This document shows positions 1-46,000 of a DNA stretch of 64,000 nt, piece after piece. Each line of letters starts with the position of its first letter. Within the stretch, counting starts at the first letter, position 1. Source of the stretch: Schmidtea polychroa (Eukaryota); contig CM097887.1 of assembly GCA_044892525.1 (NCBI GenBank), positions 111,268,397 to 111,332,396 on the forward strand, given 5' to 3'. The notes beneath the pieces were generated by a model that ran no database searches, was not told the origin of the DNA, and saw only the letters and a list, made by a program, of their open reading frames with translations. The position numbers and the translations under genes were made by a program.

Positions 1-2
1 CG

Positions 3-2732
3 GAAGCCTTCATAATCTTAATAGATCTATTATCATATGAGGATAATAGGGAGATAGGAAACATGTATGACGGGTTATTAACTGGAATCAAAGAGAAATT
101 AATAACAATTACTGGAATACTAATTGCATGGAGGAACCCGATCAAAAACGATTATATGGTAGATATAAACGAAACATTTACCAAAGGAGAAAATACCTTG
201 ATGAGGGAAGCGATGAGAGGACATCACCTATTCGAAATTCCAAATCAACTACTACAACGTGGCATAAAATTTTCAAATCACAAAGACGAACAACTAATCA
301 GAAAACGAATTACCAACTTCGAAAAAGCTATATCTCAATTTACCGATAAAGTACAAGTAAAATTTTGGGAAACCGTGAGTGTATTATATATGATGGAGAA
401 TATGAACAACATTCGAGAAAACTACCTAAGTATTATTCAAGTGCTTACGGCGGAAGAACGCATTAACAGTTCAAACAAGTAAAAGATAAAAATAAAGAAA
501 GTAAAAACAAGAGAGTCTGAGGAACAAGTCGATCAAATAATAACCGATATAGCAACAACAAGTAAACCAAAGATAATAAACTCAGACCAGGAGATAATAA
601 TACGCAAAGCCAAAGAGGTGTTCTTTGAAGAAATGCAAGATCTATCCGATGAAGCGATACTAGCAAAAATAACAAAAACAGTACACACCTACGCAAGAGA
701 CCAGACCACAAATCTAGACATAGAAAAAATAAAAACATTTATACCACTAGCATTCACCTTACCAACAAAAGACTCAAGAACACCATTACAACAAGCCATT
801 TTAGCAGCAAATGAAAACAGAGCAATAACCATCATAAGAATCCTTGGAGACTTCGGAGAAGAATCTAATGCAAAAAATGAACAAGGAGAAACAGCAATAA
901 TGTATGCAGCCATAACAAATATACACCCGAAAACATTACATATACTACATCGATCGGGATCAAGACTGGACGAAATATCAAACGAAGGAAATTCTACCAT
1001 GGATTGGGCAACCATACAACCAAACTTGGAAATGATTAGATTCATTTGTAAAAATGCTACAAGAACTGAGGTAGAAAATATCTGTAAAAACACGTCACAG
1101 TTCCAATGGAACACGATACGGATGAACTTAGAAGCCATGAAGTTATTGCTAACATGGAAAATACCGCAAAGCAATAAATATGCAATAAATATAAATGAGT
1201 TCTACGAAAACGGAGAAAATGCTATGGTTAAAAATACACTAACAAAAGGAGGAACTCCGAAAATCATAATGATCGTATTGAACAGAGAAGACCTCAAATT
1301 CACGCAAAATCTAAACGAACAAAAGCGGATTGGAAAACATCGCCGTATACAATTGAGAGAACTGGTAAAAGAATGGAATAGAAAGAGACATGTAGCAACA
1401 GGCAGAAAAGAGTTTGAATTCGAGGCAAAATTAGCAAGGAATAGAGTGTTAACGGCATATCGCAGATTATTGAACGACATAAATGTCGAGGACGACATTT
1501 CAAACGATAGCGGGGGAGATAAAGACGATAAAGACGACGATGATAATGAACAAGGTCGAAACGGGAATGGAGAGAAAGAGAAATCAGAGGAAAATAATCA
1601 AGGGAATAACGACTCAGGTATAAAAAAGGAGGAAAATAAACCGGGAAGCCGAACAAAGGAAGAGGAAAAGACGAATAATGGGAAACAGAGGGTATGCCCA
1701 CTTTTTACCAACAAGGAAATGGAAACAAATATGATGGTAATGATACTCATACTAACAATGATAGAAATGATAACAGCCCACGGTGGAATGAGAACGATAA
1801 AAGAAGCCAAGGAAACGGAAAACAAAGACAACAAGGAGAAGGAACTAAAGCAAGAAAAGAAGAAGCAAGTACGAGAGCAACAATGGGATTTAAAAGAAGA
1901 ATGGGATCTAAAAGAAAGATGCATACTAGGAAGATGTATGTCGAGAGCATATCGGAGACTAGTATTAATAAATGAAGATACAGAACCAATAACGGAAGTA
2001 AGAATACAAGAAGCATACCGGAATCGAGACGGGAAGAGAATAACTAAAGTCAAAGGGAAGGAGGTACACCTGAGAAAAGGAGGTGAGGTAGTGATAACGC
2101 AACTCCAGCCAAGAAAAGAACACAAAGTCTGCATTTCAAGATTAGGACCGGGTGAAGACTGTCTACAATATGTAACACAGCAACAACCTCCAAAAGAATA
2201 CACAGTATGCATCTGGAGAAACGATACAGCGAGAGAATGTCGACGATACCCTGGGAAAAGAGGGAGGAAAAGAAAAATCAATGACGAAAAAGATGAGCAA
2301 GGAAAACGCAAGAAAACCGATGAGAAATATCAAGACAATTATGTATCCGAGGAGGAGATGGAGAAAATACAAAGAATGGCAAAGGAAGGTATGAACGAGG
2401 AAATAGCAAGAATACGAGGAATGATAAAAGGAAATGGCAAAGACGGTAATCTAAAAAACACAGAAGCAATATCAACAATAACGAACAAGGAAAAAGCAGA
2501 AATTATAAGCATAAAACAGATGATGTGGATCAGCGGCATAATAATAACAGGGGCCTTTTTAATCATAACGGGGGAGACAATAAAAATAATCAAAGATAGG
2601 CGGCATCGCGGAGAACTAGAAATGGCCAGAATAAGAAATTTTCAACATCGTGTAAAACGACCAAGTAATATCAAGCAGGAACAGTGGGTGGAGGCCTGGA
2701 ATGCTCAGCGCCCTCCAAGCCCACGTATATAG
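3..2732 (+). CDS. Accessory ORF A (5'-partial): ankyrin repeats + acidic linker + internal signal/TM + FN3-like ectodomain + TM; one in-frame TAA at 480-482
   Basis: Frame 3 is open from base 3 to 2732 except for a single TAA, so ORFs 63-482 and 618-2732 are in the same frame. Ankyrin-like units: DINETFTKGENTLMREAMRGHHLFEIPNQLLQRG, RTPLQQAI, GETAIMYAA, GNSTMDWA. Hydrophobic segments: MMVMILILTMIEMITAHGG and MMWISGIIITGAFLIITG. FN3-like motif VVITQLQPRKEHKVCI and an NDT sequon. Confidence 0.7.
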
Positions 2733-2900
2733 AAAGGATTATGACTGTATATAGATTGTAAAAAGTAAGTAGATAATATTTATTTATATAACAGTATGAT
2801 ATATTTTTATATAACCGCGGTATCAATATTATATAACGATGGGGATAAATAATATAAAAATAAAATTGGATAAGGGTTGAAAAGTATATATAAATTAAGA

Positions 2901-3275
2901 ATGGAGCGAATAGGCGAGGAAGTAAATCACAGTACAACAACCGAGGAGATGTGGAAACAACAATGTGCAATGTTAACTCAAGTGATTTCGAACTTACAGG
3001 AACAAGGACTCGCTGTACAAAGAAGCTTAGTCGAAAGTTTAAATAAAGGCTTCAGTTATGTAAGAATAATCGAAGACCAACGAATAAAAATAGAACAAAT
3101 GCAGCGAGAGATAGACCGAATATCACGATACAGCCAGGTGCAAGAAGAGGAGTTATTAAGAATCGCGGAAGAGATGGAGCGAGAGGAGATAGAAGACTGG
3201 TCAGAATGGTTAACCAGCAGGGAAGAGGGCGGACAAGAGGCGACTCTTCCAGCCAATAAATATAACCTAAAATAG
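2901..3275 (+). CDS. Accessory ORF B, small coiled-coil protein (124 aa)
   Basis: ATG at 2901. E/Q/R-rich heptad-like sequence with the same codon bias as the flanking cassette ORFs. Confidence 0.6.
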   Translation: MERIGEEVNHSTTTEEMWKQQCAMLTQVISNLQEQGLAVQRSLVESLNKGFSYVRIIEDQRIKIEQMQREIDRISRYSQVQEEELLRIAEEMEREEIEDWSEWLTSREEGGQEATLPANKYNLK

Positions 3276-3348
3276 CAATGTAAATAACTGTAAATAAAAA
3301 TACGAAACTGTACCAGTAACGAATATATGTATATATATAATTATAGAA

Positions 3349-4736
3349 ATGGATAAGCGACAACGAGAAGAATTCAAAGAAATTGTTGAACAAGTCAGAA
3401 AGTCCACCACAATTCGAATACACAACCATGTAACGTGTGGGATATGCAAGAGCTTATTAAGAGAACCTCACCAAACCAGATGTGGATGCAGAATGTGCAG
3501 AGAATGTGTAGAGGAGATAATAAAGAAGGGACCACAATGGTGCCCAGTATGCAAAGAAACAATGATAACAAGTTTGGGAGATACAAACGAAGATAAAGCA
3601 GCTGTAAAAGATATGTTGAATGCAAACCTAGGATGTAAAAACACCCCATGTAATTGGCGAGGAGTGATATGGGAAGTGAGGCAACATATGGAGCAATGTG
3701 AATATAAAATCAGTCAATGCAAACGTTGCCAAGAAGAGATTAAAGTCAATGAAGAAGCAGAACATCAAAGTCGATGCGAAGGAAGACTGGAGAAATGTGA
3801 GTATTGCGGAGAAACCGACACCTGGAAAAAACTAATCAGTCAACATCACAACATACAAGAGGAGAAAGTGTGCACAGAATTCAGAGGAGAATGCCCCAAC
3901 AAATGCGATAAACCCGGAGTAATAAAACTCGCTCAACATCTAAAAGAATGTGAAAGAAAAAGATAACGTGTGTGCTAGGAAAATGGGGATGTCAGAAACA
4001 ATTACACCGAGGGGAATTACCCCAACATCTAGCAGAAAACGTATCAACACACGCGGAAATATGGTCAACGGCATTACAAGAAAACGAAAGGAAAACCGAA
4101 AACTTAGAAAGAGAAATAATCTCGCTAAAAGCGTTGGTAAAAGAACTATTAGAAGAAAAGGAAGCATTTGAAGAGGCAAGAACAAGTACAAAGATACAGA
4201 CAGATCTAGTAGAAACTAGCAACATTATGGTGAAAGAACTACATCAAAAAGTAAGCGAATTAAACCTCAACGAATTAATACCAACGGCTCCATACATATG
4301 GAAAATAACGGGAGTAAAAGAGAAGATGCAGAGAGCGAGAAATGGAAAGGATACAACATTACTAAGTCCAGCATTCTACTCATGGAAAAACGGGTATAAA
4401 ATGAAAATGAAAGCATACCCCAATGGGGATGGGAGTGCATACGGAACGCATTTCTCAGTATTCTTCTTGATGTGCAAAGGGCTATACGACGAGTTAATAG
4501 AATGGCCATTCAAAGCAAAAATAGACCTCGCAATGATGAACTATCAAAGTATACATGAACAGAGTTTCCATACAGCGGGAAACCTCGTATGTTACCAAAG
4601 GCCCTTGGAAGAAGAAGGACCAGCAACTGGAGCACCGAATTTCATCCTACAGCGGAAAGTAGAAGACATGACGAGAAACGACACTATATACATAAAAATA
4701 GCGGTGAGGCGAGACGGGAAGAGTAGGACTGAGTAG
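3349..4736 (+). pseudogene. TRAF: TNF receptor-associated factor (RING + TRAF zinc fingers + coiled coil + MATH), intronless, split by a 1-nt frameshift
   Basis: RING CGICKSLLREPHQTRCGCRMCREC...CPVC, TRAF zinc fingers (CKNTPCNWRG...HMEQC), and a MATH domain (YIWKITG...SPAFYS...GYKMKMKAYPNGDGSAYGTHFSVFF...EWPF). Adding one A to the A5 run at 3957-3961 fuses the two ORFs as ECERKKITCVLGKWGC. Confidence 0.92.
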
Positions 4737-4950
4737 AGAGACGAATAATTTTGTATATACTAATTGTAAATATCGGCGTATATATCCAGTAAAATATTAT
4801 ATAATAGTGTAGAAAACCCCAAATCTACTAAAGGTAAACTTAAGCGTAAAACTCCTAAAACAACTCCTATAACGAATTGTAACAATAAATAAATAATAAA
4901 ACAGATATAGACGTACAACGTTGAGTTAATGATATCGTTATTTAGACAAG

Positions 4951-5988
4951 ATGACTCAAGATCAAACGGAAGCCCCAAATAACGAAATAAACATCAGTAG
5001 AATACATAGAGAGAGATGGGCCAAAGTAATGATACAATTATCAAACCAAACACGAAATTACCTCGAAGAAGCGAGAGAATGGGAAAACCACCAATTCCAG
5101 TGGTTAGTACAGAATTTACGGGCGGAGGCCGAGGCCTGCAAAAGAGCCGCCAAATGGTCGGCATTAGAAAATACCAGGCAAGAGGCGCACGGGCATTACC
5201 TGAAGCAGCTGGTACAGGAGTCAAGAAAAAGACTAACGGATGAGAATAAGAAGCGGGAAGTAGAAAAACAAAAGGAGGAAAGAAAGACCCGCCAACTATT
5301 AGCAGAAGCTAGAAAGTGGAAAAAACAACATCGAGAAATCCAAAAAGAGATGAGAGAATTGCCGCAGAGATTGAAACACGAGAGTGATCAAGGAAAATGG
5401 GAAGAAAACCTGGATCAGAAAGAAGAGTTAAGAAGGCTCCGGAAAGTAGCAGCTAGAAGTCAAACCTGGCAGACCAAGGCCATGGAATTTGAAAGGCATC
5501 TGGCCATGAAACTGTCTATAAAGGAACAGGAAAATACCGCCATGGAAGAGATGATCCTGCAACAGTCAGGTAGAATCGTCGAACTCGTAAACAAGGTGGC
5601 AGATCTTGAAAGAGACAATAACGGCTATAAGGGGGCACTAGAACAAAGGAATATAGTGCTAGCCGGTAAGAATAAGAAATTGGAAAACGAGAGGAAGATG
5701 TATGACGAAAATATCAAGAACCTCGAAAAGGAGATCAAAAAATGGGAGAACGGCGAAAAAGCGGAGGAGTTAGAAAAACAGATAGAAGTAAGAGATGATG
5801 AAACCAGGTATCTGACATACCTGTTAGACGAGGAACTCAACGTGTCAAGAGCGCTAAGAGACGAAGTTCAGGAGCTTAGAGCACAGATTCCCCGGTACTA
5901 CATCCCATTTGATCCCATCGCAATCCAACTACAAACGTCAATAGACAGCGATGAAGGGTATGTAGGCCAGGAAGAAACCTTTGTATAA
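4951..5988 (+). CDS. Accessory ORF D, long coiled-coil protein (345 aa)
   Basis: Intact ORF, E/K/R/L-rich helical sequence with a short non-coiled C-terminal tail. No recognisable family. Confidence 0.7.
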   Translation: MTQDQTEAPNNEINISRIHRERWAKVMIQLSNQTRNYLEEAREWENHQFQWLVQNLRAEAEACKRAAKWSALENTRQEAHGHYLKQLVQESRKRLTDENKKREVEKQKEERKTRQLLAEARKWKKQHREIQKEMRELPQRLKHESDQGKWEENLDQKEELRRLRKVAARSQTWQTKAMEFERHLAMKLSIKEQENTAMEEMILQQSGRIVELVNKVADLERDNNGYKGALEQRNIVLAGKNKKLENERKMYDENIKNLEKEIKKWENGEKAEELEKQIEVRDDETRYLTYLLDEELNVSRALRDEVQELRAQIPRYYIPFDPIAIQLQTSIDSDEGYVGQEETFV

Positions 5989-6038
5989 AGATAAGGTGAA
6001 AAGATAAAAAATATAAAAAGCGGGACCTGTATCCCAAC

Positions 6039-6067
<29 letters not shown>
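6039..6067 (+). repeat. Poly(A)29 tract between ORF D and ORF E
   Basis: 29 consecutive A, flanked by imperfect direct repeats CGGGACCTGTATCCC (6021-6035) and CGGGACTGTAACCC (6093-6106). Confidence 0.9.
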
Positions 6068-6070
<3 letters not shown>

Positions 6071-6183
6071 ATTAGTACGATAAAAATATTTACGGGACTG
6101 TAACCCTGATTATATAAAATTACCTATAAATGTATAAGTATAAGCCGCACTGTAGCGCACTATTAATTGTAAATATTGTAGAA

Positions 6184-6894
6184 ATGAAAATAGAAGAAAT
6201 ATCCACCATGACCGAGCTAGAGGAGGGAGAAATTGAAATCGAGGAAGTGGAGAGGAAGAAAACTATCAAAGAAGAATTACAAGAAGAGAAACAAGAAAAC
6301 GAAAGATTAGTAGAAAGGTGGAGAGATAATCGAAAAATGATTAAAGTATTGAAAAGAGAATACACCTTGCTAGAAGAAGTAAAGAAAGAAGTAGAGGAAG
6401 AAAATGAATGGCTTCACGAGCAAGGAAAGCGAGGAAGAAATTGGGAGAAAATTGCGGAGGAATTATGGCAGGAAAGAGCCAGTCTCAAGGCTAATGAAGT
6501 GATTGAAGATTACTGGAAAACGGAAGCGAGGAAACGACAAGAAACTATCAGGGGTCTAGAAAACCAGCTGGGAGTAAAAGTGCAGGAAAGTGCAAAAATG
6601 GAGAAATGGATCAATAAATACCGAGAAATAGAAATAAAACGGCAGAAACAAAGCCCAAAGACGAACGACCCAGAAGAAAATGATTTCCTACAATTGGAGC
6701 TGGAACGGAACTTGGAGGAGAAAAAGAAGGAGATAAAAACCTTGAAAAGAGAGATAAAACACTTGGCGGACAAGGTCCAAGAGAAAGATAGGCAGCTCGA
6801 GATGTTGCCGGAACTCCGACATAGGGTCATTAAAGCAGAATCCAAATTAATGAGAATCCGAGAGAGAGACCCTAAAAAGAAACGACAAAATTAA
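6184..6894 (+). CDS. Accessory ORF E, coiled-coil protein (~236 aa; alternative start 6130)
   Basis: Intact E/K-rich heptad ORF. The ATG at 6184 follows a TAG acceptor-like site, and the charged composition begins there. Confidence 0.65.
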   Translation: MKIEEISTMTELEEGEIEIEEVERKKTIKEELQEEKQENERLVERWRDNRKMIKVLKREYTLLEEVKKEVEEENEWLHEQGKRGRNWEKIAEELWQERASLKANEVIEDYWKTEARKRQETIRGLENQLGVKVQESAKMEKWINKYREIEIKRQKQSPKTNDPEENDFLQLELERNLEEKKKEIKTLKREIKHLADKVQEKDRQLEMLPELRHRVIKAESKLMRIRERDPKKKRQN

Positions 6895-6953
6895 AACCAA
6901 CAAAAAGCGATGTATATAAATATGTATAAAATAACTAAATGTATATCAGTATC

Positions 6954-7613
6954 ATGAGAAGCCAACCGATCATTGTAACGCTGATGATGATGATAATTCT
7001 TGATCTAACCCGACGACAGCCAGTGAAACCCCAAATCGAACGGGTTCGAGACAACAGAAAACCCCATCAGAAAATCGAACCAACAACCCCATCGTGCACC
7101 TGCTCAAATGCCATAAGAACCAATCTTATCAATAACCTTCGAGCAACCCGAAACTACATCAACAACATCAGAATTATGTGTAATCACAACCCTATGTGTA
7201 AAATCATCGATAAAAGAATTCTGGACCAAATTCACCAAGTCGATCAATTAGAACAGCAGGTCCAACACCAAGAAACACAAAATCCACCCGATCAAGTAAA
7301 AAGCCCGAATGAAATAAACCACACCTATGAACTCCTCTATGTGGTAATCGCCGAGACCACCTTAATCTCAATAGTCACCCTGCTAAAAATCGGTAACCTC
7401 TGCAAAGTTTGGAAGAAAAGTCACCCCGTACCAGAAAGATCATCTCGAAGATCCCAAGAAGCTAACATGGCTGAAGTAATCCATGAAAACCTCCGTCAAC
7501 GAACCTCCATCGCAGAAACAGTCAGACCATCCGCAAGTCGCCGAATATACTACAACATCGAACCCCAACAACCAAATCCCCCATCATCAACGGCAACTGA
7601 ACACCAAACATGA
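6954..7613 (+). CDS. Accessory ORF F, small type I membrane protein in the env position
   Basis: N-terminal hydrophobic signal (IIVTLMMMIILDL), Cys-containing helical ectodomain (CTC; CNHNPMC), TM segment LLYVVIAETTLISIVTLLKI and a cytoplasmic tail. It is the last ORF before the PPT-like tract. Confidence 0.65.
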   Translation: MRSQPIIVTLMMMIILDLTRRQPVKPQIERVRDNRKPHQKIEPTTPSCTCSNAIRTNLINNLRATRNYINNIRIMCNHNPMCKIIDKRILDQIHQVDQLEQQVQHQETQNPPDQVKSPNEINHTYELLYVVIAETTLISIVTLLKIGNLCKVWKKSHPVPERSSRRSQEANMAEVIHENLRQRTSIAETVRPSASRRIYYNIEPQQPNPPSSTATEHQT

Positions 7614-7829
7614 CACTTCGAACTGTAACTATTGACAAAATTCTTGATGTTTTATTATATTATGATGAAACCGGTCACCTTAAGTGGCCACTGCTTGTCT
7701 ATAATTGTCATTTTCTCTGTTTAATTAAAATAATTTTTGTTAATTTAATTCTATGTGTGTGTGGATTTTGATTGTGAGATTAGTTGTTATACTGAAAGCA
7801 GGTACGATTCGAATGTACGATATTATGTG

Positions 7830-7867
7830 AATTGCGGGACGCAATTTTAACGGGCCCCGGAGTGATT
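7830..7867 (+). other. Gypsy-type 3' hairpin and degenerate polypurine-tract region
   Basis: Perfect 7-bp stem AATTGCG/CGCAATT with a GGA loop (GGGACG core), followed by TTTTAACGGGCCCCGGAGTGATT directly before TG at 7868. The tract is not purely purine. Confidence 0.55.
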
Positions 7868-8365
7868 TGTTGGGCCAAGCTCCGAAGGTGTTGGAAAAAC
7901 GAACCTAGGAAGGGATAGAGTAAAATAAAATAAAAACATATAAAAATACGAGAAACATAGGAGGAAACAAATTAAATATCCAGAAAGAAATTAGAATAAA
8001 ATTAGAATAACTAAATAAAATAACAAAACCCCTAAAGGAAAAATAAGACAAGAGGGAAGGCACCTAATAAACGACAGTAAAAGAAAAAAAAATAAAATAG
8101 CAGAAAATTTAAGAAAAATGAACAAAAGTAAAAGAAGAAAAACAAAATAAAAATAAAAAAATCATCCATAAGGCTAATTAAAACAAAAAAGGAAGTTACA
8201 ATAAAATAGCAACAAAACCACAAGAAAAACAGATAAAATAATAAAAAATAGGAAAATAAATAAAATAATAATAAAAATAGGAAAAAGTCATTAAAATATA
8301 CCTGATTACATTAAAAAACATAAAAATCATAATAAACAATAATATTACATGCAAGTCGCGTCCTG

Positions 8366-8389
8366 ATTGGACGAAAAGTAATATATAAA
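8366..8389 (+). promoter_or_regulatory. LTR Pol II promoter: inverted CCAAT box and TATA box
   Basis: ATTGG at 8366-8370 and TATATAAA at 8382-8389, followed by a hairpin-forming region (8403-8436). Confidence 0.6.
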
Positions 8390-8709
8390 GAGCGACAAAA
8401 ATCTGTAGAGTATCATTCTAACCCGAAACTCTACAGGTAAAATTTTATCCTTTATAATATCATTCTAACCCGAAACTCTACAGAAAAGCTAGGAACCACT
8501 CACAAGCACAGATTATTGAACCATATTCATTTATCGGATAACATATACATTGAACGGAGATCGAATTCAGCTCAGTCGAACGAGTCTATCTAAAGAAAAC
8601 TTATATTACTTTGATCTAACACCTTCGGAGATTTTTGGTAAATTATGTTTTAGATTTTAGTATGATGATCTAAATATTTATTATGAATTTAACAAGTCGT
8701 TTATAATCC

Positions 8710-8750
8710 AATAAATTTCATATTTTAAACGAAGGTGTTGCTTTCTCTCT
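8710..8750 (+). terminator. Putative LTR polyadenylation signal with GU/U-rich downstream element
   Basis: AATAAA at 8710-8715 followed about 20 nt later by GGTGTTGCTTTCTCTCT. Confidence 0.4.
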
Positions 8751-10708
8751 ATGAGGCTGGCGACGGCGTCCTCTGGAATCCGGGTATGATGCAGTTGGGT
8801 TTTTCGAACGTCCTACGGAGAGGAAATTTACGAATATGAACTCGGGAAATTGAAGTGATAGAACTAGCCCAGGATCCATATGAATTTAGAAACTAAAGTG
8901 ATTACTTAATGAATACGAGATTTATGCTAACCAGAGTCATCATGCCCGGATTTCAAATGTCGTGGTCGCCAGGTGAACATTTATTTAATTGATTTTCTCA
9001 TAATTCCATTATTTCTATATTGATTCACTGAATAATTAAATTGTATTGTTGCACATTTATTGAGAATGGAGTTGCGATGAGACGGGTCGAGTCGTCCTTC
9101 ACACCGGTCCAAGAGCAGTGGGCAGAGATGCGTACTGCCTTGGGTGGGTTGTGAGGAGCGAGGAAACCATGTGAGATTTAACAAATCAAGTAAATGATTC
9201 TTTCATCGAGTGTAATCCACCCATCTTAGTCGTCGAAAACCATCCAATGCAGAAACTTCTGAGTGACATAGTTTGAGTCAACGATACCTTGGGAACTCCC
9301 GGAGGCATACCATTAGAACTATCATCAGCCTTGTATCCAATCACGTCATTAATAATCTTTGATTTGGAGCCTTATTCGTCTTGCATTGAGAGAAGCGACT
9401 GCTAGAACGTCTGCCGGAAGGAGTTATTAATTTCGAGTTTTTACGAGAGATTCTCTGTACTAAGCCCATTTCGTATCTTACAATCTGAAGGTGCTTTGGA
9501 AGCTACACCGCCGGGAGGTTAGCGAATAGATCCATCGTCTTGCTTATCGTCGACTCCGGGGGGACTTAATCATCAACCGACATCTAGCCGCTGTCATCGA
9601 TAATAGCCGTTTTAGAGATGAATGTAAACATCTCTAGATAGTAGATTTAAACACTGGCTATGAGTCCGAAGGAAACGGTCGCCAGCGACATCGGGTGGGC
9701 GTAGTAGACTGCCGGGAAATCGGTTGATAAGATATCTGAAGCCTCAGTCACGAGCGAACGAGTTGACAGTTTTTATCTCAAAACCAATTAGTGGAGCAAA
9801 ATCTAAATATGGAATCGATCTTATCTAGTAGATTCGCAATTTAGCCCACACAATTAGATTCACGAGTTTTCTATGACACCCTCTTAGATTTCCACCTATC
9901 TAGAAAGTCAGCCAGCGATGTCATGTCTAGTGTGCAGATAGTGGATAAATTTATCTCACGATTGTGTAACGGTAGACCAGGAGATGGTAGACTACATGTC
10001 CAATCCGACAGTGAGATTACGTCATACTGAATAGTAGAATGTTCTACCTAGTCCACGACCACAGGCTGAAGATAAATCATACAATGCATGCATACGAACA
10101 GACCTGACAACATCTGCTAGCCTACCTCCAGGGTAAAACTAATACACCACTACTCACAAACAAGCGTCGTTATGACGACATTTATGGCGCAAGATTTAAG
10201 ATGATCAAATAGCAAATTATGATAAGACTTAAATTGAATTTTGCGGTTCTTTTATGAAGCCGATCACGGCGGTTTAAAACCCCAATAGTCACCCGTCATA
10301 CCGAACTATGTTTTTGTGACTTCACGAGTGCGAAATTTTACGAGTATAGTAGGACGGGGAGTGGGAATGCTATTACTAGGGAAGGATAATTATAACAAAC
10401 TCGACTGTGGTAAATTAATAAAAGCACATTAAATAAAAATGGCCAATTTCGGACAACAAACATAAATTCAAAGTTAGGATAAATGTATTATTTTGAGGAA
10501 GCCCGTTTTCTTTTTTTTTTTTTTTTCTCTATCAGTGTGGATGCTTGCAGACAAATGAGTGTAAATGTTGACCAGTGATATGGGTAAGTGGGTCATTGTC
10601 GAGTAGGATGATTGGAAATAGGGTAAAAATTGTAGTCAAAATTTGGAAACGACACTCCAACGATTTTTTTTTTAAACTCTACAATTAACAAAACGTCTTG
10701 ATCTTTAG

Positions 10709-11470
10709 ATGCCTGCTTCAACCGCTACGAACAAGGATCTCCGTCCCTGCTTCTCCTGCGCAGATAAAAACGCAGACATAGCACAACTCCACTCATACAT
10801 TGGGGCACTGAAAAAGAGAATTGATCTCTATGAAGGCACGTGGTTCTCCCCGCCACAGATGAAGGAGGAGCGCAGTAAAATTCTTCGGTTGGAACATTGC
10901 CGGGACAGCCTCCTAGAGGAGAGTCGCTGTCAAAGACTGACGATCAAGGCGCAATCGGAAGCCCTCCACAAGGTCTACACGGAGGCAGAATTGGCCAAAC
11001 GGGTACGAGAATTTCCCGTCTTGGAGGCCAGCAATGTTTTTCCCACTCACCACCAAAGTACTTCCACCGCTACAACCAGTTGTCTGGGGCACGGCTCCTA
11101 TCTGCCGCCTGTTCCAGCACCGGCCTTATATAGTTGTCAGCCGCCGGTAGGTGGTCCATCCGACCCTATCTTGGCTCCAGTTTTAGTGACATCAGTTACA
11201 GCACCCGATGCGGACAACCATCAACCACAGCGTAAAAGAAAACGGCCGACCCGAGCCGCCAAAAATCAAAGACGTCGAGATGCAATCGCGGCTCTCGAGG
11301 CGTCGTTATCTGTGGCCAAGTCTTCTCTGGAGAAGTTATCGTCAATACCCTCTACCCCCACAAAGGAGATATTCCGGGTGATCTCGCCCGAAGGGGTCCA
11401 GCTCGTGCGAGACCGTCGGTTACCGGTCGACATCGACGAGATGATCGCCGAAGGGGAAGTTTTCCCATAA
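10709..11470 (+). CDS. LTR-encoded 253-aa protein (CxxC, coiled coil, Arg-rich motif, acidic C-terminus); intact copy
   Basis: Intact ORF preceded by TTTAG. Homologous ORFs at 32975-33748 and 43587-44360 share LE(H/R)CRDSLLEESRCQRLTIKAQSE with mostly synonymous differences. Confidence 0.85.
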   Translation: MPASTATNKDLRPCFSCADKNADIAQLHSYIGALKKRIDLYEGTWFSPPQMKEERSKILRLEHCRDSLLEESRCQRLTIKAQSEALHKVYTEAELAKRVREFPVLEASNVFPTHHQSTSTATTSCLGHGSYLPPVPAPALYSCQPPVGGPSDPILAPVLVTSVTAPDADNHQPQRKRKRPTRAAKNQRRRDAIAALEASLSVAKSSLEKLSSIPSTPTKEIFRVISPEGVQLVRDRRLPVDIDEMIAEGEVFP

Positions 11471-14270
11471 TTGGACGTGTCGTTGACCCATCTCTCATTC
11501 CACGCGATCAAGCTCAACAATCTTTATAAACGACTTAGATGATGCGTGTTGTGTACTCTCCTACGTGTTGTGATCGGAAATTTGTGTTCATATGTATCCT
11601 CAATTTCATTAATATAATCATAGTATTCGTTGTGTTGTCCCGTAAAAGTTATAGAGTGATGAGTTATGACTGGACGAATGGATTGGAATGATCATTGGAG
11701 AATGTGGGTCGTCCCCTTGGACCAGGGTCGTACCGAGAATACATGACGAGTAGGGGTAAGACCTTCTTAGGCACCGAGGAACCTGAACTGAGAGGGGGTC
11801 CGTAGTAGTCCTAAGGCAGGGGCTCACCTGCGGACCAACTCCGACCCGTGTGAGCAGTACCAACGTGGGTAGATCATCACGGGCTCACATGAGGGAATAT
11901 TTGTAAATCATGCGGGTTATGTGGGGGAAGGGCCCCGAGCTAAAGGAACATGATGCCAGCTGCACTACGAATGTCCGTTTGACTCCTCCCATATACGCCC
12001 AACAATAGTAATCGATAAAAGTGTAATTGTGATTGTCTCGAATAAAGATTATTGTGTTTGGTTGTTTAAATAAATTTCAGAAAGAACACAAAGGAGTCAG
12101 ACCGTGATACCGACTTGCACAAAATAACTAACACTAAAATGTAAGATGAAAAATATAAGATCATGAAGATTGTTGAAGAACAACCGAATATGACGAAGAA
12201 ACCTCTTCATAGTATGAAACCTCAAACCTTAAACAAGGTCTTGGAGAACAAAAAAGATTCTCTCGCAAAACTGTTTGATTACAGCTGAAGATAATTCTCC
12301 CTTTTAGACGAATATTTTGGATGTAGTCAGTCATAATGTCTGTAGAATAAAGTGAAAAGTAGAATGATTGAAACCAGTTTTCGTTCAACGGGTTTTGTCA
12401 AAAGGACAGAATTTTATTGGACTAAACCCAGTAAAATAACATTTTAAATTATCCTTTTGTTTAAATTAATAATAATTAAAAGAGAAAAATAAATGGTCAT
12501 CTGAGAAGACATCAAATCAAAGAGCAGTTATTTAAAATAATTAAAAACACCAATTAAAACTAAAGTAAAGTAAAACAAAAATAAGAGATAAATAAAACAA
12601 AATTAATAAAATCAGTATCACATTATGTATAACACACGAAACATATTTTAAACGCATAAAACTACAAAATAAATTGTCGAAAAAAGACAATAGCAAAAAA
12701 GTATCACCTTATCCATGGGAATCCTTAGAGGTTATTAGCCTAAACGGTGGTAAATGTTCTCAAGTCACCAGCTGATGGCAGTATCAGAGTCTCCATATGA
12801 GGCAGCCGTACAGTCATCTCTGACAATTATAATATTAAAATAACCGCTCGACATCATCTAAAGAAGGCCACGGCAATCAGTCAATTCTACAACCATGCCA
12901 TTCCGTTAATCATCAACCTAAGCTTGAACGAAATGGTTTTCTCCTTTACAGTCAATGCCAACATCTTCAACCTTGATGATTTGTTGGCCAATGTCGAAAG
13001 AGAGGTTATAAGCCCATCTGGAACTTTGTGTGTTGAACTAATTCATTTTGTTATGTTTTGTCAATTATTATTCATTAAATCTCTATCGCTGTATTGCTTT
13101 GATTTTCATTTTTTCTAAGTTACTAATAGATATATTATAAGTAATAATTATCATCTTCATCTTAACAGATAGGTGGTATTCAGGCCTCAAGAAGGAATTA
13201 ATATATCCCGTAAATTTTGAGGACCACAAATTTCGATATGTTATGACAATACCAACTTATCGTCTCTAGCTTTGGCGTAAGACCTTTTATAGCCCGTCCT
13301 GAACCCGTTTCAGATCGTACGATAATGAATAGTTCTGGCTTACCTGCTTATCGACCTCAATCTATTATGTACAATTCCAACATGGCCATCGATTTCGGTC
13401 CTCCAAGCTGATGGCTATTTATTATCGCTATTTATTTTAATTTGGAATACCATATAATCCTTATCGCACGATTCAGTAGGTTATGTTTTATATTTGTTTA
13501 TGTTTTTTTGTTATGTTTTGTTTCATGTATAATAATTTAAATCAATAATTTTTCTGATTCATTTTTTCTTAATTTAATTTAGTTATTATTATGTAAATTT
13601 TATGAATGCACTTGTCCAAAAATTCGATTTGTAAAGATATATGCTGTAGTCGGATGACAATCCACACCATTAAGCTGGGGGAGCTCAATGAAATTCTTGC
13701 GAAGTCGTGTGGAGTTTGGTGCCTCAATTTGAAAGTAAGCGGTACTCGAATTCCACTTAGAGAGGACTTTAGTGCAAATCACCTCCGTGACCATTTATAG
13801 TATCAAAATATGCATATGAAAACCAGATCAATGATGAAAACCCACATTTTATCCTTTCGAGCGATTTCCAGCGCAACCCAGAATACAAGAAAGTTGTACT
13901 GCTCGATACCCGTTGAGCTTTTCTCGCTGGTGTTGTCCACTTGTCAGTGAGAGGGCTCCAACCGATAACCGTGATTCCATGCTCGAACCCGGAGTGCTTC
14001 TTATTTACGAGCTTGAATTCAAATGTTTGTTCAATCTGTTGATCTCCCTTAGCTGCTATTTTCGTTTGTACTGTTGGGGTTGGGCTCGTTCAAAGAGCAA
14101 TTTCATTAACCGTATAGAGACTAGGATGATAGTTATAATAATAATAATATGTAGATAATAATAAAAATTATTAAAAATAGCATAGATATAATAATAGTAT
14201 TATTTAATTACCTAAAATAAATTAGAATTAGAATTAGTACATTTAAATTACTATATATAGATAGTATGCT

Positions 14271-16131: not shown

Positions 16132-17475
16132 CTCACTATAGGACATTGATTTATCATAAGGACATTCAATAAGCTAAAAATTTTCATTTTTAAATCAAAT
16201 TATTGTCAAAATGTTCGAAGATATTTCAGAAGCTTCTTCAGAATCAACAATTCCATTTCAAGAAATTCATAGAAATGTGTAAGTTTTTCATTAAACTTTA
16301 ATTATTTTTTAAAAATCGATATAGAATTACCATTAAAGATAAAGAAAGAATCATTAAATCCATGGAAGATGACCATGATTATTATGAATTAGGCCGTATT
16401 CTTGGAATTAAGCGGAATACAATAACCAGCATTATTTTGAAATATAAGAAGACTGGAATTTTATCCGCAGGAACAAGAGGAGGCAATCGACCAACAATTA
16501 TCACAACAATTATTGGCCAGGAATTATTGAACTATGTCGAAAGAAATTATTATTCGACATTAAATCAAATGAGATTGTTTTTATCTACAAATCACAATGT
16601 AGAAATTTCCACAAAATCAATATCCAGGTACCTGAAAAATCAATTATTAACCTTCAAAAGGATCAGGCCTTGTGTGGAAGAAAGAAATTCAGATAGAATA
16701 TTGGATATTCGGCAGACATATGTTACACGTCTGCTTGAAGAAGGTTGGAGGAGCAGTAAATCTATTTATATAGATGAATGCTCTTTCAATACATGGACAA
16801 ACAAGAGATTCGGAAGATCTCGAGTAGGCACTCGAATTTACAGCAATGTGCCAACAAATCGAGGTCCCAATATTTCATTAGTTTTGGCAATATCCAAAAA
16901 TGGGCCAATCCATTCACAAATCATCATTGGCTCTTTTAGAAAGGAATCATACCAGTCATTTATAACAGAATTGACTGAGAAACTGAATGGCTCTGGATTC
17001 ATTTTGATACACGATAATGCATCCATCCACAATAATGTATTATCTTTGAACAATCACATAGAAAAGTTGCCTCCATATAGTCCATTTTTGAACCCCATCG
17101 AAAGTGTGTTCAGCAAGATTAAAAATGGGGTAAGGACTAAAGTTTCCTCGACTAATGGATTTTCCAGGATGAGTTTCAATGACAGATTTATCGCAATATC
17201 CCAAGCAGTTATCGAGGAACTTAGCAAACCAGATTATAGTAATTTGAAAAATTACTATAATCATATTAAAAGGTTCTTCCCTAAATGATTGAAGAAGCAG
17301 GATATTTTAGGTGAATTCTGAAAAATGTAATGTATATTATAATAAATAATTAAATATCTTACTTCTTTATTCATTATTTTTAAAAAAATCTTAAAATTAA
17401 CTAAAATCCAGAACAAAGCTTATTTGACAAAGCTAAATGAATGTCTCATTTATGATAATTAAATGCGCTTTGGTG
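16132..17475 (+). mobile_element. IS630/Tc1/mariner-superfamily DNA transposon
   Basis: Transposase gene flanked by degenerate inverted ends (CATT.A.TTATCATAA...GACATTCA.T.AGCT on both sides) and TA dinucleotides at 16130-16131 and 17476-17477. Confidence 0.75.
16211..17321 (+). CDS. Tc1/mariner-type transposase, two exons (16211-16278, 16325-17321), premature TGA at 17286-17288
   Basis: 46-nt GTAAGT...TAG intron joins in frame. N-terminal HTH region. Catalytic motifs IYIDECSF, IHDNASIH and PPYSPFLNPIE. The frame continues LKKQDILGEF after the TGA. Confidence 0.85.
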
Positions 17476-32430: not shown

Positions 32431-34300
32431 TGTTGGGTGCTTAGGGGTGAGCCGCGATGGTAGTTGTTAGGGGAAGTGAAAACTGCTCAGAGACTCCTTC
32501 CTAAACGCTCATTATGATTATTATCTGACTGCCACATGTGTACCCATGATATAGATCATGTTGGAGATGTACTCACGGGTTGGAATTCATGAGCATGTAA
32601 GCCGCTGCGTCAGAACTACTCCTCATGATATTCACTTTTCGGGTCCTAGAATACCGATAGAAGGACTTACATCTTACTTATTTTCTCATATCGAGATACT
32701 GACAAACCTCTGGTCCAGTTGAGGTCATCCTTAATCACTTTCTTTCTCTATTACACGACCATCAGACCGAAACATTTTTCAATTTCTTGACACCGATAAG
32801 ACAGACAAAAACATACGACATCAAAATTGTATTAAATTCACAGTACGTGAGATACTACATGGTCTTAACACATCCAACAAGTCATACGACAAAATTTACG
32901 ATATTAGTAGTAGATCAAAAGGATACATTTTGTCCGGATCAATTACAGTTAACGACGATAGACGGCCTGGGAAGTTATAATAGTTCCGCACCTTCCTTCA
33001 AGAGAGCAGCGATATCTATTTCCTACTGTGGGTCTCTGATCGGTGGAGTATTATAGGAGAGCACAACCCTATAATGAGGAGTACTGGGCAGTGCTTGGTT
33101 AGATGTAGATTCCTTTTTCACCGTACTAGGGACAGCAAACAACATTGCTTCCACGACAGCTATTTCATCTCGTCGTTTCTTTGAGCTCTCAGCACGAGTG
33201 AGGAGATTGCGCTTCCGAGAAGTTGGCTGATTAGGAACGGTGAAAGTGGTTATCGGAACTGTTAGTGATGTGGTTACGCTGGGTGGTTGAGCCAGGAACA
33301 CACTGGTTTCCATAAAAATGGCATCGGAGATAAGTGAAGGGGACATTTCGGGTCAGTGATTAAGGCAGATCGCCGTAGAAAGGACTCGAGTTTCGTCGGC
33401 ACGATGATGGACCGAAAAGACGTTTAACTTATCGATGACCGGAAACTCAGTGATTCGACTTTTTAACTCCGCCTCCGAACAAATGCTGTGGAGGGTCTCC
33501 GACTGGGCCTTGATAGTGAGTCGCTGACACCGACTCTCCTCTAGCAAACTGTCTCGACAGTGCTCTAAACACAAGATTTTTCTATTGGCCTTCTTCATGA
33601 GTGATGGGGAGAACCACGTACCTTCGAGTGCATCGATGCGCTTCTTCAGAGCCCCGAGATTGTCTTTCAGTTGCCGGATTGTCGGATTTTTATCTGCGCA
33701 CGAAAAACACGGCTTTGGGCCAGGCTTGGTAAGATTTGATTTGGACATTTATTAAAAATTTAGAAAGATATTTATAGGGTGAACGCGAATATCAAATGGA
33801 TATATAAGTGATCAGACATCTGGTCTATAAGTCATAAGCATATACAAATCGAACTTAACCCTACTTCTAGCATTTAAATTTTACACGATGGTCGGATTTC
33901 AGTGGATCTCCACCTCTTACCCTACTATCATCTCTGTGTATGTCTTGGAAAATTTTCCGAGCATGGGGACGAAATTTGATCGACGAATATAGGTGAACTT
34001 CTCGTTATTATTAAAGAAAAGGTTAATTAATCCAGAGGTTTAATTTGAATGATGATTAAATTTAAAAGTTATTTTAAATAATATTAGGGATAAATTAAAT
34101 GAACGGGTAGTCGGGGAAAACCTTCCTTCTTATTTAAATGAATATTTAAATTTAATTCAAGTATTAATTAGAAAAGTGATTCGATTCGAGAATTGGCTTA
34201 ATTAGTATTAGAGACGAATCAAATATATGTTTATCAACAAATCGAATAGACTAAATAATTGTTTAGGTGATGGATTCAAAGTAACATTAATTTTTATTGG
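32431..34300 (-). repeat. Partial LTR, second subfamily copy (terminus at 32431)
   Basis: Minus strand ends in CACCCAACA. Contains the conserved terminal block and the LTR-ORF homolog, and abuts the MULE at ~34302. Confidence 0.7.
32975..33748 (-). pseudogene. LTR-encoded ORF homolog, copy 2, with two in-frame stops (33353-33355, 33023-33025)
   Basis: ORFs 33353-33748 and 33023-33346 are in one frame. The frame continues EIDIAALLKEGAELL*, matching the C-terminus of copies 1 and 3. Confidence 0.85.
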
Positions 34301-40162: not shown

Positions 40163-40741
40163 TCTAATATATAAAGATGAAAGTTTGTTTGTTTGTTTTC
40201 TATAGAATTCCCCATTGTTGGACCTAGGGTGCTGAAAATTTACATGTGGCCCTCATTTGACTCGGGACAGATCATATGATATTTTTCAACCCCAGGTGAC
40301 CACCCCTTAGTCGGTTTTTTGTCTGTCCAGTCAGTAATTTACCATATAAATAATAATTTATTATATGCTTGCTACTTGCAGTTGAAAGTAATATAATTTA
40401 GTCAAAAGTTTTCAAAACAGAATTCAAACATGGAGAATTTGAATTGTATTTGATTAGTGAACCAGTTTGCAATTGGAAACATATTGCCAGTTATTTTTCA
40501 ATTTAAATTGGAGTGCGTTTTCGATTTTACAAATTGAAATTTATTTTGAAAGCTTTTCTTATTGTGAATTTGCGAAGTTTTCTCCGGCCGAAAAGCTGAT
40601 ACTACCTTATATCAGACTAGCTGTTGTACCCGGCTTCGCCCGAGTTTACATTTATTATAACAATTCGTTTAAACAAAAAATTAATTTAAACGAATTATTA
40701 TAATAAATGTAAACTCGGGCGAAGCCGGGTACAACAGCTAG
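40163..40741 (+). mobile_element. Non-autonomous Helitron
   Basis: 5' A|TCTAATATATAAAG...GTTTGTTTGTTTG; 3' GC-rich CGGGCGAAGCCGGG followed by AGCTAG|T. Confidence 0.7.
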
Positions 40742-40790
40742 TCTGATATAACGTAGTATCAGCTTTTCGGCCGGAGAAAACTTCGCAAAT
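40568..40790. repeat. Fold-back inverted repeat with 106-bp arms and an 11-bp spacer
   Basis: 40568-40673 is the reverse complement of 40685-40790 with about 2 mismatches. Confidence 0.92.
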
Positions 40791-43080: not shown

Positions 43081-46000
43081 TGTTGGTCACTTAGGGGAAT
43101 GTTATTTATTTACTGAGGAATTCTCCTAAGAGCCCTTCATGACTTGACCATGATCTCCCTCATGAGTACCCATGAAAATAGGTCATGTTGGTGCTGCACG
43201 GAATTTGTGAACAGATGAGCCCCTGTGTTAGGACTACTATTCACAATATTCGCTGTACGGGTTCGTGAATGCCGATAGAAGGTCTTACATATACTCTACC
43301 TGTCTTTCTGACTACAATCTGTCTCTGGTCCAGTGAGACAACTTCAAAATTCTTAATTTTTCGACATGATTACGGATCTGGAAAATAACGTCTCTCTATA
43401 TAATTTCATACAAAAGCGTGAGAACATAAGACTTTTTTCAACAAATTCTATTACATACCACATAAATAACACGGGTGAATCATCTAATGTTTTACACATT
43501 GGTATTACAGTGTCCATACTAAGCGACAACCAATACGTTTTGACTGGAAAGTTGGTTTAGTCCTGGAGATACGAGATCGAATCTTTTCACACCAGGTCTC
43601 CTTCTTCGATCATAGCATCAATGTCCGTTTGTAGATGCGGATCGTGATGGAGCACAAAAGTTGACGAAGGGATTACTCGATAAGAATCTATTGCAAGTGG
43701 TGTGAGAAGATTACCACTAGACGATCTTACGTTGGCCTCTTGAGCCGCTAATAATGTGGACTCCAAAGCGGCGATCTCTCTTTGTCGCCTTTTCGTTCGC
43801 TCTGCACGAGTTGGACGTTTTCTTTTCCAGGGACTGGGTTTCGTTGGAACGTCTGGTTGTGCTACTGGTGCGGCGAGTAACGACTTAGTGAGAGCGGAAT
43901 CCGGATGCACGTTGATACTTGGTTCACCGTCCAAGATAGGAGCGATGTATGGCGGGAGATCGGGGCCGTGGCCTTGACAACCAGAAGATGTTAGTGAAGT
44001 TATTTCATCCATCCGATGGTGGATGAGGAAAATATTCAGCTTATCTGCCATTGGGTACTCTTTCACTTGCCGCTTCAACTCTGATTCAGAGTATATTTGA
44101 TGCATGGCCTCCGACTGGGCCTTGATCGTGAGCCGTTGGCATCGACTTTCCTCCAGGAGGCTATCCCGGCAACGTTCGAGCCGTAAGATTTTCATGTCAG
44201 CCTCTTTCATTTGTGGCAGGGAGAACTACGTACTTTTCAGCGTATCGATACGCTTCTTCAGAGCCCGTATATGATCTTTCAGTTTTGCATATCCGCATTT
44301 TTGTCGGCACACGAAAAACAGGGCTTCGGGCCGCTTTTTGGCAAGTTAGGTTCCGACCTACTAGAAAAGTGAGTTAACAATAAAACCACTAATATACGAA
44401 ATAGATCAATACACTTCCATCGTATATCAGGCACTATACTACCCTCCTTATTTTTATCCTCAATTAACCTCTCAAAATCTTATTGTCCTATTAAACGCGA
44501 TCGTTTTCTCACATATTTTAGTATTTTTTTCAGTTGTTTCATTTTGGTCTCAGCGGGAGTGAGATTTGATCATGGAGTTTGAACCACTTACATTATTATT
44601 ATCGTTAAAAAATTCGCTGTAGTATATAGCCCCTTTCAGAATACCATGAATTACGAAATCTCCCTACAAAATATAAGCTCTATTAACCACTCGGAATCGC
44701 TATCTTATTTTAATTACCATATTCATTCATGGCGAGAATCGTTTCCCTAATCACCGCATGGACTACCATTTTAATTACTTCGAAAAATAACAAATGGTGC
44801 AAGAAATTTTATGATGTTAGACTAGGATTTTTTGGCGGTCTCTCCCCTTAGATAGGACGCCGCCATTCTCTTATGATATTAAATTTTTAGAACTATTCCT
44901 TCTCAGCTCGATTTGTTTTAATAAAGACCATATTTTTATAATGAATTTATTTTAATTAGTTTGGTCAATTTATTTGTTGATCTAGTAACGTTGCATGTTT
45001 ATCTTATCGACTAGATATGTGTGACAGTCATAGTAAATTCCTCTGCCGAGTAAAAGAAAATTGATATGAAAGGCTGATGACCAATTCCAAACAACCGATT
45101 CAGTGGTATTCTTGGCTCCGACTATTTATCTGTCATTTTCTCGTAACTTCACTTTGATCGTTTATATGTATCAAATTTATTGAAACGAATTGTCAATTTC
45201 CTGTTTGCGAATGTTTATGATAGCAGGAAACGTATATCCTAAGAGACGGACGAGGTGAAATTCCGGGGAGTGTTGTGCATCGTCCCATTGGAGACCGGAT
45301 GTTTACTATAGCTGACGCTCCAAGATCTATTCTATTATCTTGGGAATCTCATATTTGTCAATGTTAACGACCTATCGTGAATGAAAGAAATCTATCGGAA
45401 TGAATGAAAATCATACACTTAAAAAATATGGAATTCACTGATGAAAATGTCGAAGCTCTCTCATCTACTTTCGAGTTCGTATAAGTGCCGATGACCATAA
45501 AAGAAATCGAAAGTGATCATAGTGTTGTGGTTTCAACCGCTGGACGAATTTACATCGTAACCGTGTCAGAAAATATGGTATTTGTTCTTGTTCAAGTCCT
45601 CGAATTTGTGCTCATTACTATCATAGAGAGTTGCCACTCGACGAAAAATCAACTTTAATTGTATGACTTAGTCATTTCTAAATATATGTCGTGACTCTAG
45701 CATCGCCATCTGTGAGGATCATCTGGTAACTACCAACACAAGGGTCAGTAATCCCAAAACGACCCTCACAAACGGGTCAAACCATATCTATGTGCCTAAA
45801 TAATCATAATAAATCAAATCAATTCTCAAATTAAAATAAATCCAATCCACTCTAGCCTTTAAGAATAGTTAAATCAAATCTAATCGACTCCAGTATTCAG
45901 CGATCACACCCTTCTCAAATTGGAGATTACACCTCTTAGTACTTCCTTCCTCAATAACAATCGATTCCTCATTTTTCGACCATTGCTACTCAGCCTAACC

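Follow-up and report, generated by a model that had tools for sequence, protein, structure and literature searches.

A selected orphan gene inside the 4.1-kb long terminal repeat of a Burro-like planarian retroelement, probably lying behind the start of transcription

The DNA analysed here, a stretch of 64,000 nucleotides from Schmidtea polychroa (assembly GCA_044892525.1, contig CM097887.1, forward-strand positions 111,268,397 to 111,332,396; hereafter the window), contains the 3' part of a giant Burro-like gypsy retroelement, and the long terminal repeat (LTR) that closes this element carries an open reading frame (ORF) for a 253-residue orphan protein. On balance it appears probable that this LTR holds an accessory gene of the element, maintained by selection and located past the predicted start of transcription, most likely in a long U5, that the gene is likely spliced within the LTR and that its product is likely a nuclear regulator of the element's RNA. 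The coordinates of the features discussed are collected in Table 1.

The stretch 7868-12004 is one genuine 4.1-kb 3' LTR of an element of ~30.5 kb. A 5' LTR situated 26.4 kb upstream is identical to it over 4137/4137 nt, the pair is flanked by the 4-bp target-site duplication (TSD) ATAG, and 7 nt after the 5' LTR lies a tRNA primer site complementary to the 3' ends of tRNA-Pro(TGG) genes found in this assembly. The limits and the 8-bp inverted termini given in an initial annotation of this DNA were borne out on the letters, and the collection of genome-wide copies, boundaries and TSDs that it had proposed returned, besides the pair, ten unpaired (solo) LTRs that have identical limits and are flanked by 4-bp TSDs (three, then seven of eight checked) and the same layout across subfamilies. 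A search of the assembly with the window LTR gave 37 matches of 91-100% identity among the 36 of 2417 candidates that were scored, most of them spanning all 4137 nt and many paired ~26.4 kb apart; one locus considered as a solo, L044, proved to be the 5' LTR of an element and was taken out of that class. Among five LTR pairs from other subfamilies, the LTRs measure 4.0-4.2 kb in three, where the ORF lies 2.7-2.9 kb into the LTR, the remaining two being split by insertions. It might be argued from the unequal divergence of LTR sub-regions, which implies that these LTRs recombine, that a short LTR and an independent element have been fused into a chimera at 7868-12004, but this reading is rejected by the identical pair with its TSD and primer site, by the TSD-bearing solos with the same ends and by the layout repeated in other subfamilies, and its probability is negligible.

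The intact ORF reported in the initial annotation was confirmed at 10709-11470. Its protein comprises a CxxC motif at residues 14-17, helices 22-42 and 48-101, a Pro/Ser-rich linker, an Arg/Lys-rich motif (~173-190) running into helix 182-211 and a short acidic C-terminal helix; a structure model places helices at 22-42, 48-101, 182-211 and 242-247, with long disordered parts (pLDDT 59.7, pTM 0.20). No match was obtained in Pfam, among PDB sequences or in a fold search, and no relative was found in a set of 5.8 billion sequences, searched for lengths of 139-443 only; the single match among 1.84 billion representatives, a 3944-aa coiled-coil repeat protein matched 29 times, was rejected as a relative. 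Within the genome a protein search with the ORF yielded 6951 candidates, of which the best 150 were scored, and 144 of these 150 are free of internal stops, copies chosen as the best protein matches being biased toward intact ones; distant copies (45-60% identity) are often broken.

Strong purifying selection on the ORF is seen in the ratio of non-silent to silent substitution rates (dN/dS), calculated for 45 distinct frames of at least 240 aa (50 of 80 loci passed the length filter). This ratio is 0.13 within the element's own subfamily, 0.10 in the sister group (copies at 73-76%) and 0.08 between both groups, and for residues 13-104 it is 0.01-0.02 across subfamilies; the basic stretch 173-190 is retained in all 13 aligned rows shown, with dN/dS of 0.07-0.11. 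The selection serves the element and not dispersed host genes. In 30 own-subfamily copies the changes common to at least two elements are 9 non-silent to 36 silent, whereas the private changes of nine TSD-verified solos number 15 and 6 (p=9e-5 for the difference), include two stops and agree with the neutral expectation of 495:261 (p=0.65); since solo-private changes are near neutral and shared ones mostly silent, selection acts during replication of the element and is relaxed in solos. In LTR pairs, the changes confined to one member, two non-silent and four silent, are too few to carry weight. The initial annotation had regarded every solo LTR as a self-contained promoter-plus-gene unit. What stands of this is that a single LTR, solos included, contains the promoter, the predicted leader exons and acceptor, the ORF and the second poly(A) signal, and this, together with the absence of ORF stops from 7 of the 10 TSD-verified solos and the benefit that another Burro cargo is said to bring to its host (Lee et al. 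2026, as cited in a passage of PMC13465017), might be taken to mean that solos are retained as dispersed host-useful genes. Such retention is nevertheless very unlikely, because stops are present in 3 of the 10 verified copies and the neutral-like private changes indicate that the ORF is lost at a neutral rate, with no upkeep as a dispersed gene; young solo LTRs could still be expressed.

The TATA at 8382 and the AATAAA at 8710, both pointed out earlier, are present and conserved beyond chance. The LTR is A-rich and AATAAA occurs 17 times on its plus strand; the block around the promoter has 350 exact matches in the genome against 0 for a reversed control, and AATAAA or ATTAAA is aligned at 8710 in 25 of 26 diverged LTRs. 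Across subfamilies a reverse CCAAT box, the TATA and a block downstream are kept, the sequence beyond being only ~60% alike. Within this block a 25-nt unit extends from 30 nt after the TATA (8412) to CAG/GT and recurs, after a spacer of 18-26 nt, at 8459-8483, so that spacer and second copy together form a GT..AG intron of 43-51 nt among loci. In a survey of 62 loci, 58 fit this pattern (three being repeats of the same place): the second copy is present in 51, identical to the first in 47 and with 1-2 differences in 4, the mini-intron is exactly missing in 6, and the GT occurs without a second copy in 1. Types of the 25-nt unit differ from each other by a mean of 6.4 of 25 nt, and the base directly before the second copy varies between loci, unlike U3, which is nearly fixed. 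Among 24 elements of the own subfamily, positions 8457-8458 are variable, the promoter, exon 1 and the second copy hardly so, and the sequence beyond 8484 is variable too. In a mosaic LTR (L114) the spacer and both units belong to one lineage and a switch to another occurs right after the second copy, and the mosaics L104 and L105/L119 switch near the same point.

Because the borders of the repeat coincide with TATA+30 and the donor, the copies within an LTR match each other and lineages switch there, we infer that transcription starts at 8412 and, with good support, that the ORF lies downstream of the start, not in U3. The 25-nt copies may also have been kept alike by simple conversion between repeats, or by selection for paired binding sites, but neither would account for borders at TATA+30 and at the donor. 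It has also to be considered that the ORF might sit in U3 in the manner of sag and nef, with the real start after it and the GTAAG at 11756 as the major donor, given that this donor-like motif is conserved inside a structured block and that the window copy has a TATAAA at 11525. That arrangement is, however, very unlikely: a canonical poly(A) signal is found in the last 300 nt of the LTR in 0 of 50 young loci, no conserved TATA lies downstream of the ORF, and it is the CCAAT-TATA-repeat block at 8366-8483 that is conserved and marks the recombination junction.

The ORF of the 5' LTR had been inferred to be the first gene of the genomic RNA, which is improbable for unspliced RNA, a poor template for it because the ORF is preceded by 45 ATGs downstream of the start region. 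Of 35 copies examined, 34 have a called donor corresponding to 8638, and in all 34 the stretch from the mini-intron to that donor is free of ATGs; shuffling predicts 89, and an equally long stretch just downstream contains 281. A YAG is found 0-3 nt before the ORF ATG in 71 of the 72 loci having that ATG (80 examined), the copies being related and amounting to some dozen lineages rather than 34 or 72 independent trials. Sequence further upstream of this acceptor is unrelated between subfamilies, and the first internal ORF of the element likewise has an acceptor before its ATG, a comparison that leaves out locus L126 because it proved to lie outside an element. From these signals we infer, again with good support, that the ORF is a spliced last exon joined to a short ATG-free leader. 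The "strong internal exon-like unit" of the initial annotation (10536-10583) was not found to be conserved, as the T run before it counts 16 T in the window element and 4-6 T in 17 of 18 sister copies, and its GTAAGT donor, seen in 4 of the 19 sister copies shown, is missing from that place in all 10 copies from other subfamilies. A short copy reaching from promoter to ORF (L125) was considered as a spliced LTR and is a plain deletion; among the 80 ORF loci there is no processed (spliced) copy.

As to the assignment of the ORF to U5 in the initial annotation, a selected ORF downstream of the promoter and outside U3 is upheld. It is fairly likely that the ORF lies in an unusually long U5, behind an R ending near the signal at 8710. 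The same gene and splicing could also be combined with a genomic RNA that ends at ~11630, at a second poly(A) signal, in which case R would measure ~3.2 kb and the ORF would be part of R and occur twice on the RNA. In all 50 young-subfamily loci this second signal reads AATATA or AATACA and lies at a distance of 880-920 nt from the ATG; when the looser pattern AATANA/ATTAAA is accepted, its position is kept in 78 of 80 loci. Moreover, donor 8638 lies 72 nt before 8710 in both LTRs, and the 370 nt after the second signal resemble an ordinary structured U5. A long R is nonetheless judged improbable, because the signal at 8710 is canonical in 25 of 26 LTRs while the second is a weak variant in all 50 young loci, because the 350 copies conserve a hairpin whose formation requires U3, and because the near-complete match of the 25-nt copies would fit a jump made after copying to the cap, which should be easier with a short R.

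Two structured RNA regions accompany the gene. In 25 of 26 LTRs the arms of a long-range stem (8757-8972) are predicted to form a duplex of -41 to -57 kcal/mol, compared with ~-21 for shuffled arms, and arms from the same copy pair better on average (-49.7) than arms taken from different copies (-39.4). The block at 11705-11895 displays two-sided changes at 21 of 43 predicted pairs in 24 sequences, a kind of count that kinship inflates, and is what one expects next to a primer site. Neither region has a match in Rfam, and a ribozyme, which had been considered for the block, was dropped on this result. Two hairpin-associated GGGCTCA motifs (11823-11829 and 11883-11889) repeat part of the primer site sequence.

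The LTR limits, the ORF, the selection on it, its loss in solos and the conserved signals around it are observations, upon which a possible course of expression and replication may be outlined. Transcription would begin at 8412, and in capped transcripts U1 bound to donors 8437 and 8638 would mask the AATAAA at 8710. Exons 1 and 2, which are free of ATGs, could then be joined to the acceptor at 10708, giving an ORF mRNA that ends at the weak signal at 11611, or alternatively to acceptors further down the element, and the packaged genome would be RNA that retains the 2-kb intron and reads through 11611. A transcript containing U3, as in the 3' LTR, is predicted to pair an 11-bp hairpin over the first donor, so that 8710 would be used, and a transcript free of U3 would leave this donor exposed. 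The 5' arm of the hairpin (8401-8411) ends one base before 8412, and in 38 of 39 LTRs the exonic donor bases are predicted to be 0-11% unpaired when U3 is included, compared with mostly 26-72% when it is left out. The packaged RNA would start at 8412 with the mini-intron removed, strong-stop DNA would end in exon 1 and land on the second 25-nt copy in the unspliced 3' R, and the second copy would thereby be rewritten in each cycle; the mini-intron, though spliced from packaged RNA, could be rebuilt because its tail duplicates exon 1. The ORF would be inherited only via 3.6-kb strong-stop DNA copied from the 5' LTR. In its full form, with a complete spliced gene in the LTR, a Rev-like regulator encoded in a 3.3-kb U5, a cap-proximal mini-intron rebuilt at each first-strand jump and a U3-dependent hairpin that tells the 5' from the 3' LTR, this proposal is speculative and unlikely to hold in its entirety.

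As for the protein, with its coiled-coil N-terminus, basic motif and acidic tail, it may act in a Rev/Rex-like way on the nuclear exit of intron-keeping RNA, one of the two covarying RNA blocks being the candidate binding site, which is the weakest step. A Rev/Rex-like regulator of the element RNA is the best guess on account of the basic motif, the nearby RNA structures and the requirement that RNA retaining introns be exported, although as a guess it falls somewhat short of even chances; sequence and fold searches gave no homology to a known Rev, Rex, Rec or Rem protein. Instead of being an RNA-export factor, the protein could activate transcription from the LTR or counter silencing by the host (PIWI-interacting RNA (piRNA) or chromatin), since the basic motif, amphipathic helix and acidic tail would equally suit a nuclear factor directed at DNA or chromatin and since Burro RNA is described, in the relevant part of PMC8532177, as repressed by nuclear PIWI. 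This option is considered the more doubtful of the two, as Pfam, PDB-sequence and fold searches revealed no DNA-binding domain and as a long intron-keeping RNA with two covarying blocks beside the gene presents the very need that Rev-like proteins meet.

Several results weigh against the proposed course of events and the Rev-like role. Across the full 9-nt U1 site, predicted accessibility changes little with versus without U3, and donor 8638, being outside the hairpin, could suppress 8710 in both LTRs. The structure model is of low confidence and has no fold match, so that the Rev-like role draws on the layout of motifs. In contigs of four runs taken by guess to be RNA (three samples, two studies), which cover only parts of the LTR, there is no GT..AG joint to the ORF acceptor and no sense start or poly(A) end; three contigs from a sister subfamily cross the acceptor unspliced, and poly(A)-like tails are antisense only (8700, 7734). 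A contig of run X1 contains an empty-site joint and is DNA-like. On the minus strand, T tails occur before 8700 in one contig and before 7734 in three contigs of run X6, and runs X1 and X6 skip 56 nt (8876-8931) that read GT.. on this strand, which hints at antisense RNA that is spliced and polyadenylated, with ends within the LTR and immediately beyond it (window 8700-9123 and 7734-7870, minus strand). TTTATT directly follows AATAAA in many subfamilies and is possibly a two-way terminator.

U5 is normally short and non-coding, and the known LTR-borne genes lie in U3. A selected gene behind the start implies that reverse transcriptase must copy ~3.6 kb before the first jump and that thousands of LTR matches, solos included, hold the whole expression unit. 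The proposed arrangement offers a candidate answer to the question of how the 27-kb intron-rich RNA of such a retroelement is made and exported, in an animal that serves the study of stem cells, piRNA control and host-transposon mutualism.

Between its LTRs the element encodes a RING ORF, gag zinc knuckles, a viral fusion glycoprotein, protease, reverse transcriptase, RNase H, integrase and ankyrin. The pol order protease-reverse transcriptase-RNase H-integrase (PR-RT-RH-IN) is that of Ty3/gypsy LTR retroelements, and the env-like gene (Monjiviricetes_fusion, E 2.6e-72) sits between gag and pol, upstream of RVP and RVT_1; all of these from the gag zinc knuckle to IN are on the same strand, upstream of the window. 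RING, MATH and ankyrin were matched in the element ORFs scanned, which gave no match for BIR or BCL2 cargo. Although the window element, with its identical LTRs, is very young, its gag-env-pol frame (L013 7928-10000, L014 1-9876) is broken by in-frame stops, in contrast with the single ORF described for Burro1, and programmed read-through, splicing or a defective copy may account for this. The stretch before the 3' LTR is fixed in all subfamilies, is GC-rich and ends GGAGTGATT; it is not a plain purine run, and at window positions 7849-7867 it is partly palindromic rather than polypurine. On the other side (12005-12135) the element appears inserted in the 3' end of another repeat, which many contigs match and continue to a CCCAACA end. 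Elsewhere in the genome, LTR ORFs at G000:C1:72646425, 72672818 and 72699211 have the 26.4-kb spacing of tandem elements with common LTRs, and four LTR ORFs at 33.2-kb spacing were also seen (listed regions C2:107321315-107374738 and C1:145063309-145163760). A long tandem array of tRNA-Pro(TGG), the tRNA that is the element's primer, begins at G000:C1:130901009 (L128) with a 475-nt period, and the tRNA-Pro(TGG) pattern has 2164 matches genome-wide.

The initial annotation had further noted two diverged copies of the ORF in the window. Both carry the same ORF ~1.3 kb from a CCAACA end, and both are broken, one by a premature stop after 131 aa and the other by lack of a start codon plus a stop. 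A stretch of 120 nt from the broken LTR ORF occurs with 100% identity at 35689-35808 and 33580-33699, 2 kb apart, and adjoins a remnant resembling, by eye, a MULE/SWIM transposase between two tandem-repeat arrays (34313-36008), possibly a recent capture.

Table 1. Positions of the LTR gene, its predicted signals and other features of the window
Feature	Position	Strand	Remarks
Element internal region, 3' part	1..7867	+	accessory ORFs
Ankyrin ORF	633-2732	+	
RING ORF	3349-3966	+	
MATH/TRAF ORF	4227-4736	+	
Coiled-coil-like accessory ORFs	within 1..7867	+	
3' LTR	7868..12004	+	4137 nt, TG..CA, 8-bp inverted termini; identical 5' LTR at G000:C3:111249839-111253975
U3 (predicted)	7868..8411	+	A-rich stretch, promoter elements, hairpin 5' arm
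Reverse CCAAT box	8366-8370	+	
TATA	8382-8389	+	
11-bp hairpin, 5' arm	8401-8411	+	
Predicted exon 1	8412..8436	+	25 nt; begins 30 nt after TATA, predicted start site A8412
Predicted GT..AG mini-intron	8437..8483	+	47 nt; last 25 nt duplicate exon 1
Predicted exon 2	8484..8637	+	ATG-free leader; conserved splice donor next, at 8638
Canonical poly(A) signal 1	8710..8715	+	predicted end of R near 8735
Conserved long-range RNA stem	8757..8972	+	arms ~8757-8793 and 8940-8972
Exon-like unit of the initial annotation	10536..10583	+	present in window copy, unconserved
Predicted splice acceptor	10690..10708	+	ends directly before ORF ATG
253-aa orphan ORF	10709..11470	+	inside LTR
Variant poly(A) signal 2, AATATA	11611..11616	+	~140 nt after stop, then GU-rich sequence
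Conserved structured RNA block	11705..11895	+	adjoins primer site; donor-like GTAAG at 11756
Target-site duplication ATAG	12005..12008	+	
Tc1/mariner-type DDE_3 transposase ORF	16362-17288		
Low-complexity ORF, 1221 aa	22974-26639		no Pfam match
hAT-like DUF4371 fragments	28803-30426		
Older broken relative of ORF and LTR 3' end	32431..33748	-	end at 32431
Near-perfect palindrome, 223 nt	40568-40790		
Older broken relative of ORF and LTR 3' end (L065)	43081..44360	-	end at 43081

Among known systems, the closest by description are Burro and GYPSM1, giant gypsy-like elements of planarians with LTRs and accessory ORFs that exceed 30 kb, as the window element does, and in which gag zinc knuckles, an env-like fusion glycoprotein, PR-RT-RH-IN and ankyrin follow in this order, with RING, MATH/TRAF, BIR and BCL2 cargo (PMC6431247). 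The window element, likened to them by description only, shares the size, the domain order and the RING, MATH/TRAF and ankyrin cargo; the text on Burro/GYPSM1 in PMC6431247 mentions no LTR ORF, LTR intron or U3/R/U5 map, whereas the window element has the ORF and a predicted intron. The element family is thus already known, and in the literature covered no description was found of an ORF or mini-intron in Burro LTRs or of a sense gene in U5, the primary Burro reports (Grohme et al. 2018, Lee et al. 2026) being outside this scope and possibly describing an LTR ORF. The window element is also unlike the described Burro/GYPSM1 in having MATH/TRAF and RING in separate ORFs and no match to BIR or BCL2.

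In the Rev/Rev response element system of human immunodeficiency virus (HIV) and the Rex/Rex response element system of human T-cell leukaemia virus, a small Arg-rich protein with helical, oligomer-like parts is coupled to structured intron RNA, and leader exons are spliced to many acceptors. The window ORF is similar in its Arg-rich stretch, its helical parts, the structured RNA in its predicted intron and its leader exons, and dissimilar in showing no sequence or fold similarity and in being a gene inside an LTR, for which binding and export are candidate roles. The coding sequences of mouse mammary tumour virus sag and HIV nef lie in U3 and are read, as spliced RNA, from the 3' LTR; the window ORF likewise is coding sequence inside an LTR with a predicted spliced RNA, but it lies downstream of the predicted start and could be made from a single LTR. 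The accessory genes of foamy viruses lie before and in U3 and are not known behind R. In the foamy virus LTR a splice donor in R precedes the poly(A) signal and a few U3 bases refold this donor in the 3' LTR, a logic established by experiment (PMC3694450) and predicted for the window LTR, for which a repeat-bearing mini-intron is predicted in addition, a feature absent from the description of foamy virus in the relevant part of that source. Finally, family-wide conserved extra ORFs without a known function are described for plant LTR elements and Ogre, the latter with LTRs of several kb, and these ORFs are placed in the internal region, up- or downstream of gag-pol, in the passages concerned (PMC7264820, PMC6431247), whereas the window ORF resides in the LTR itself.

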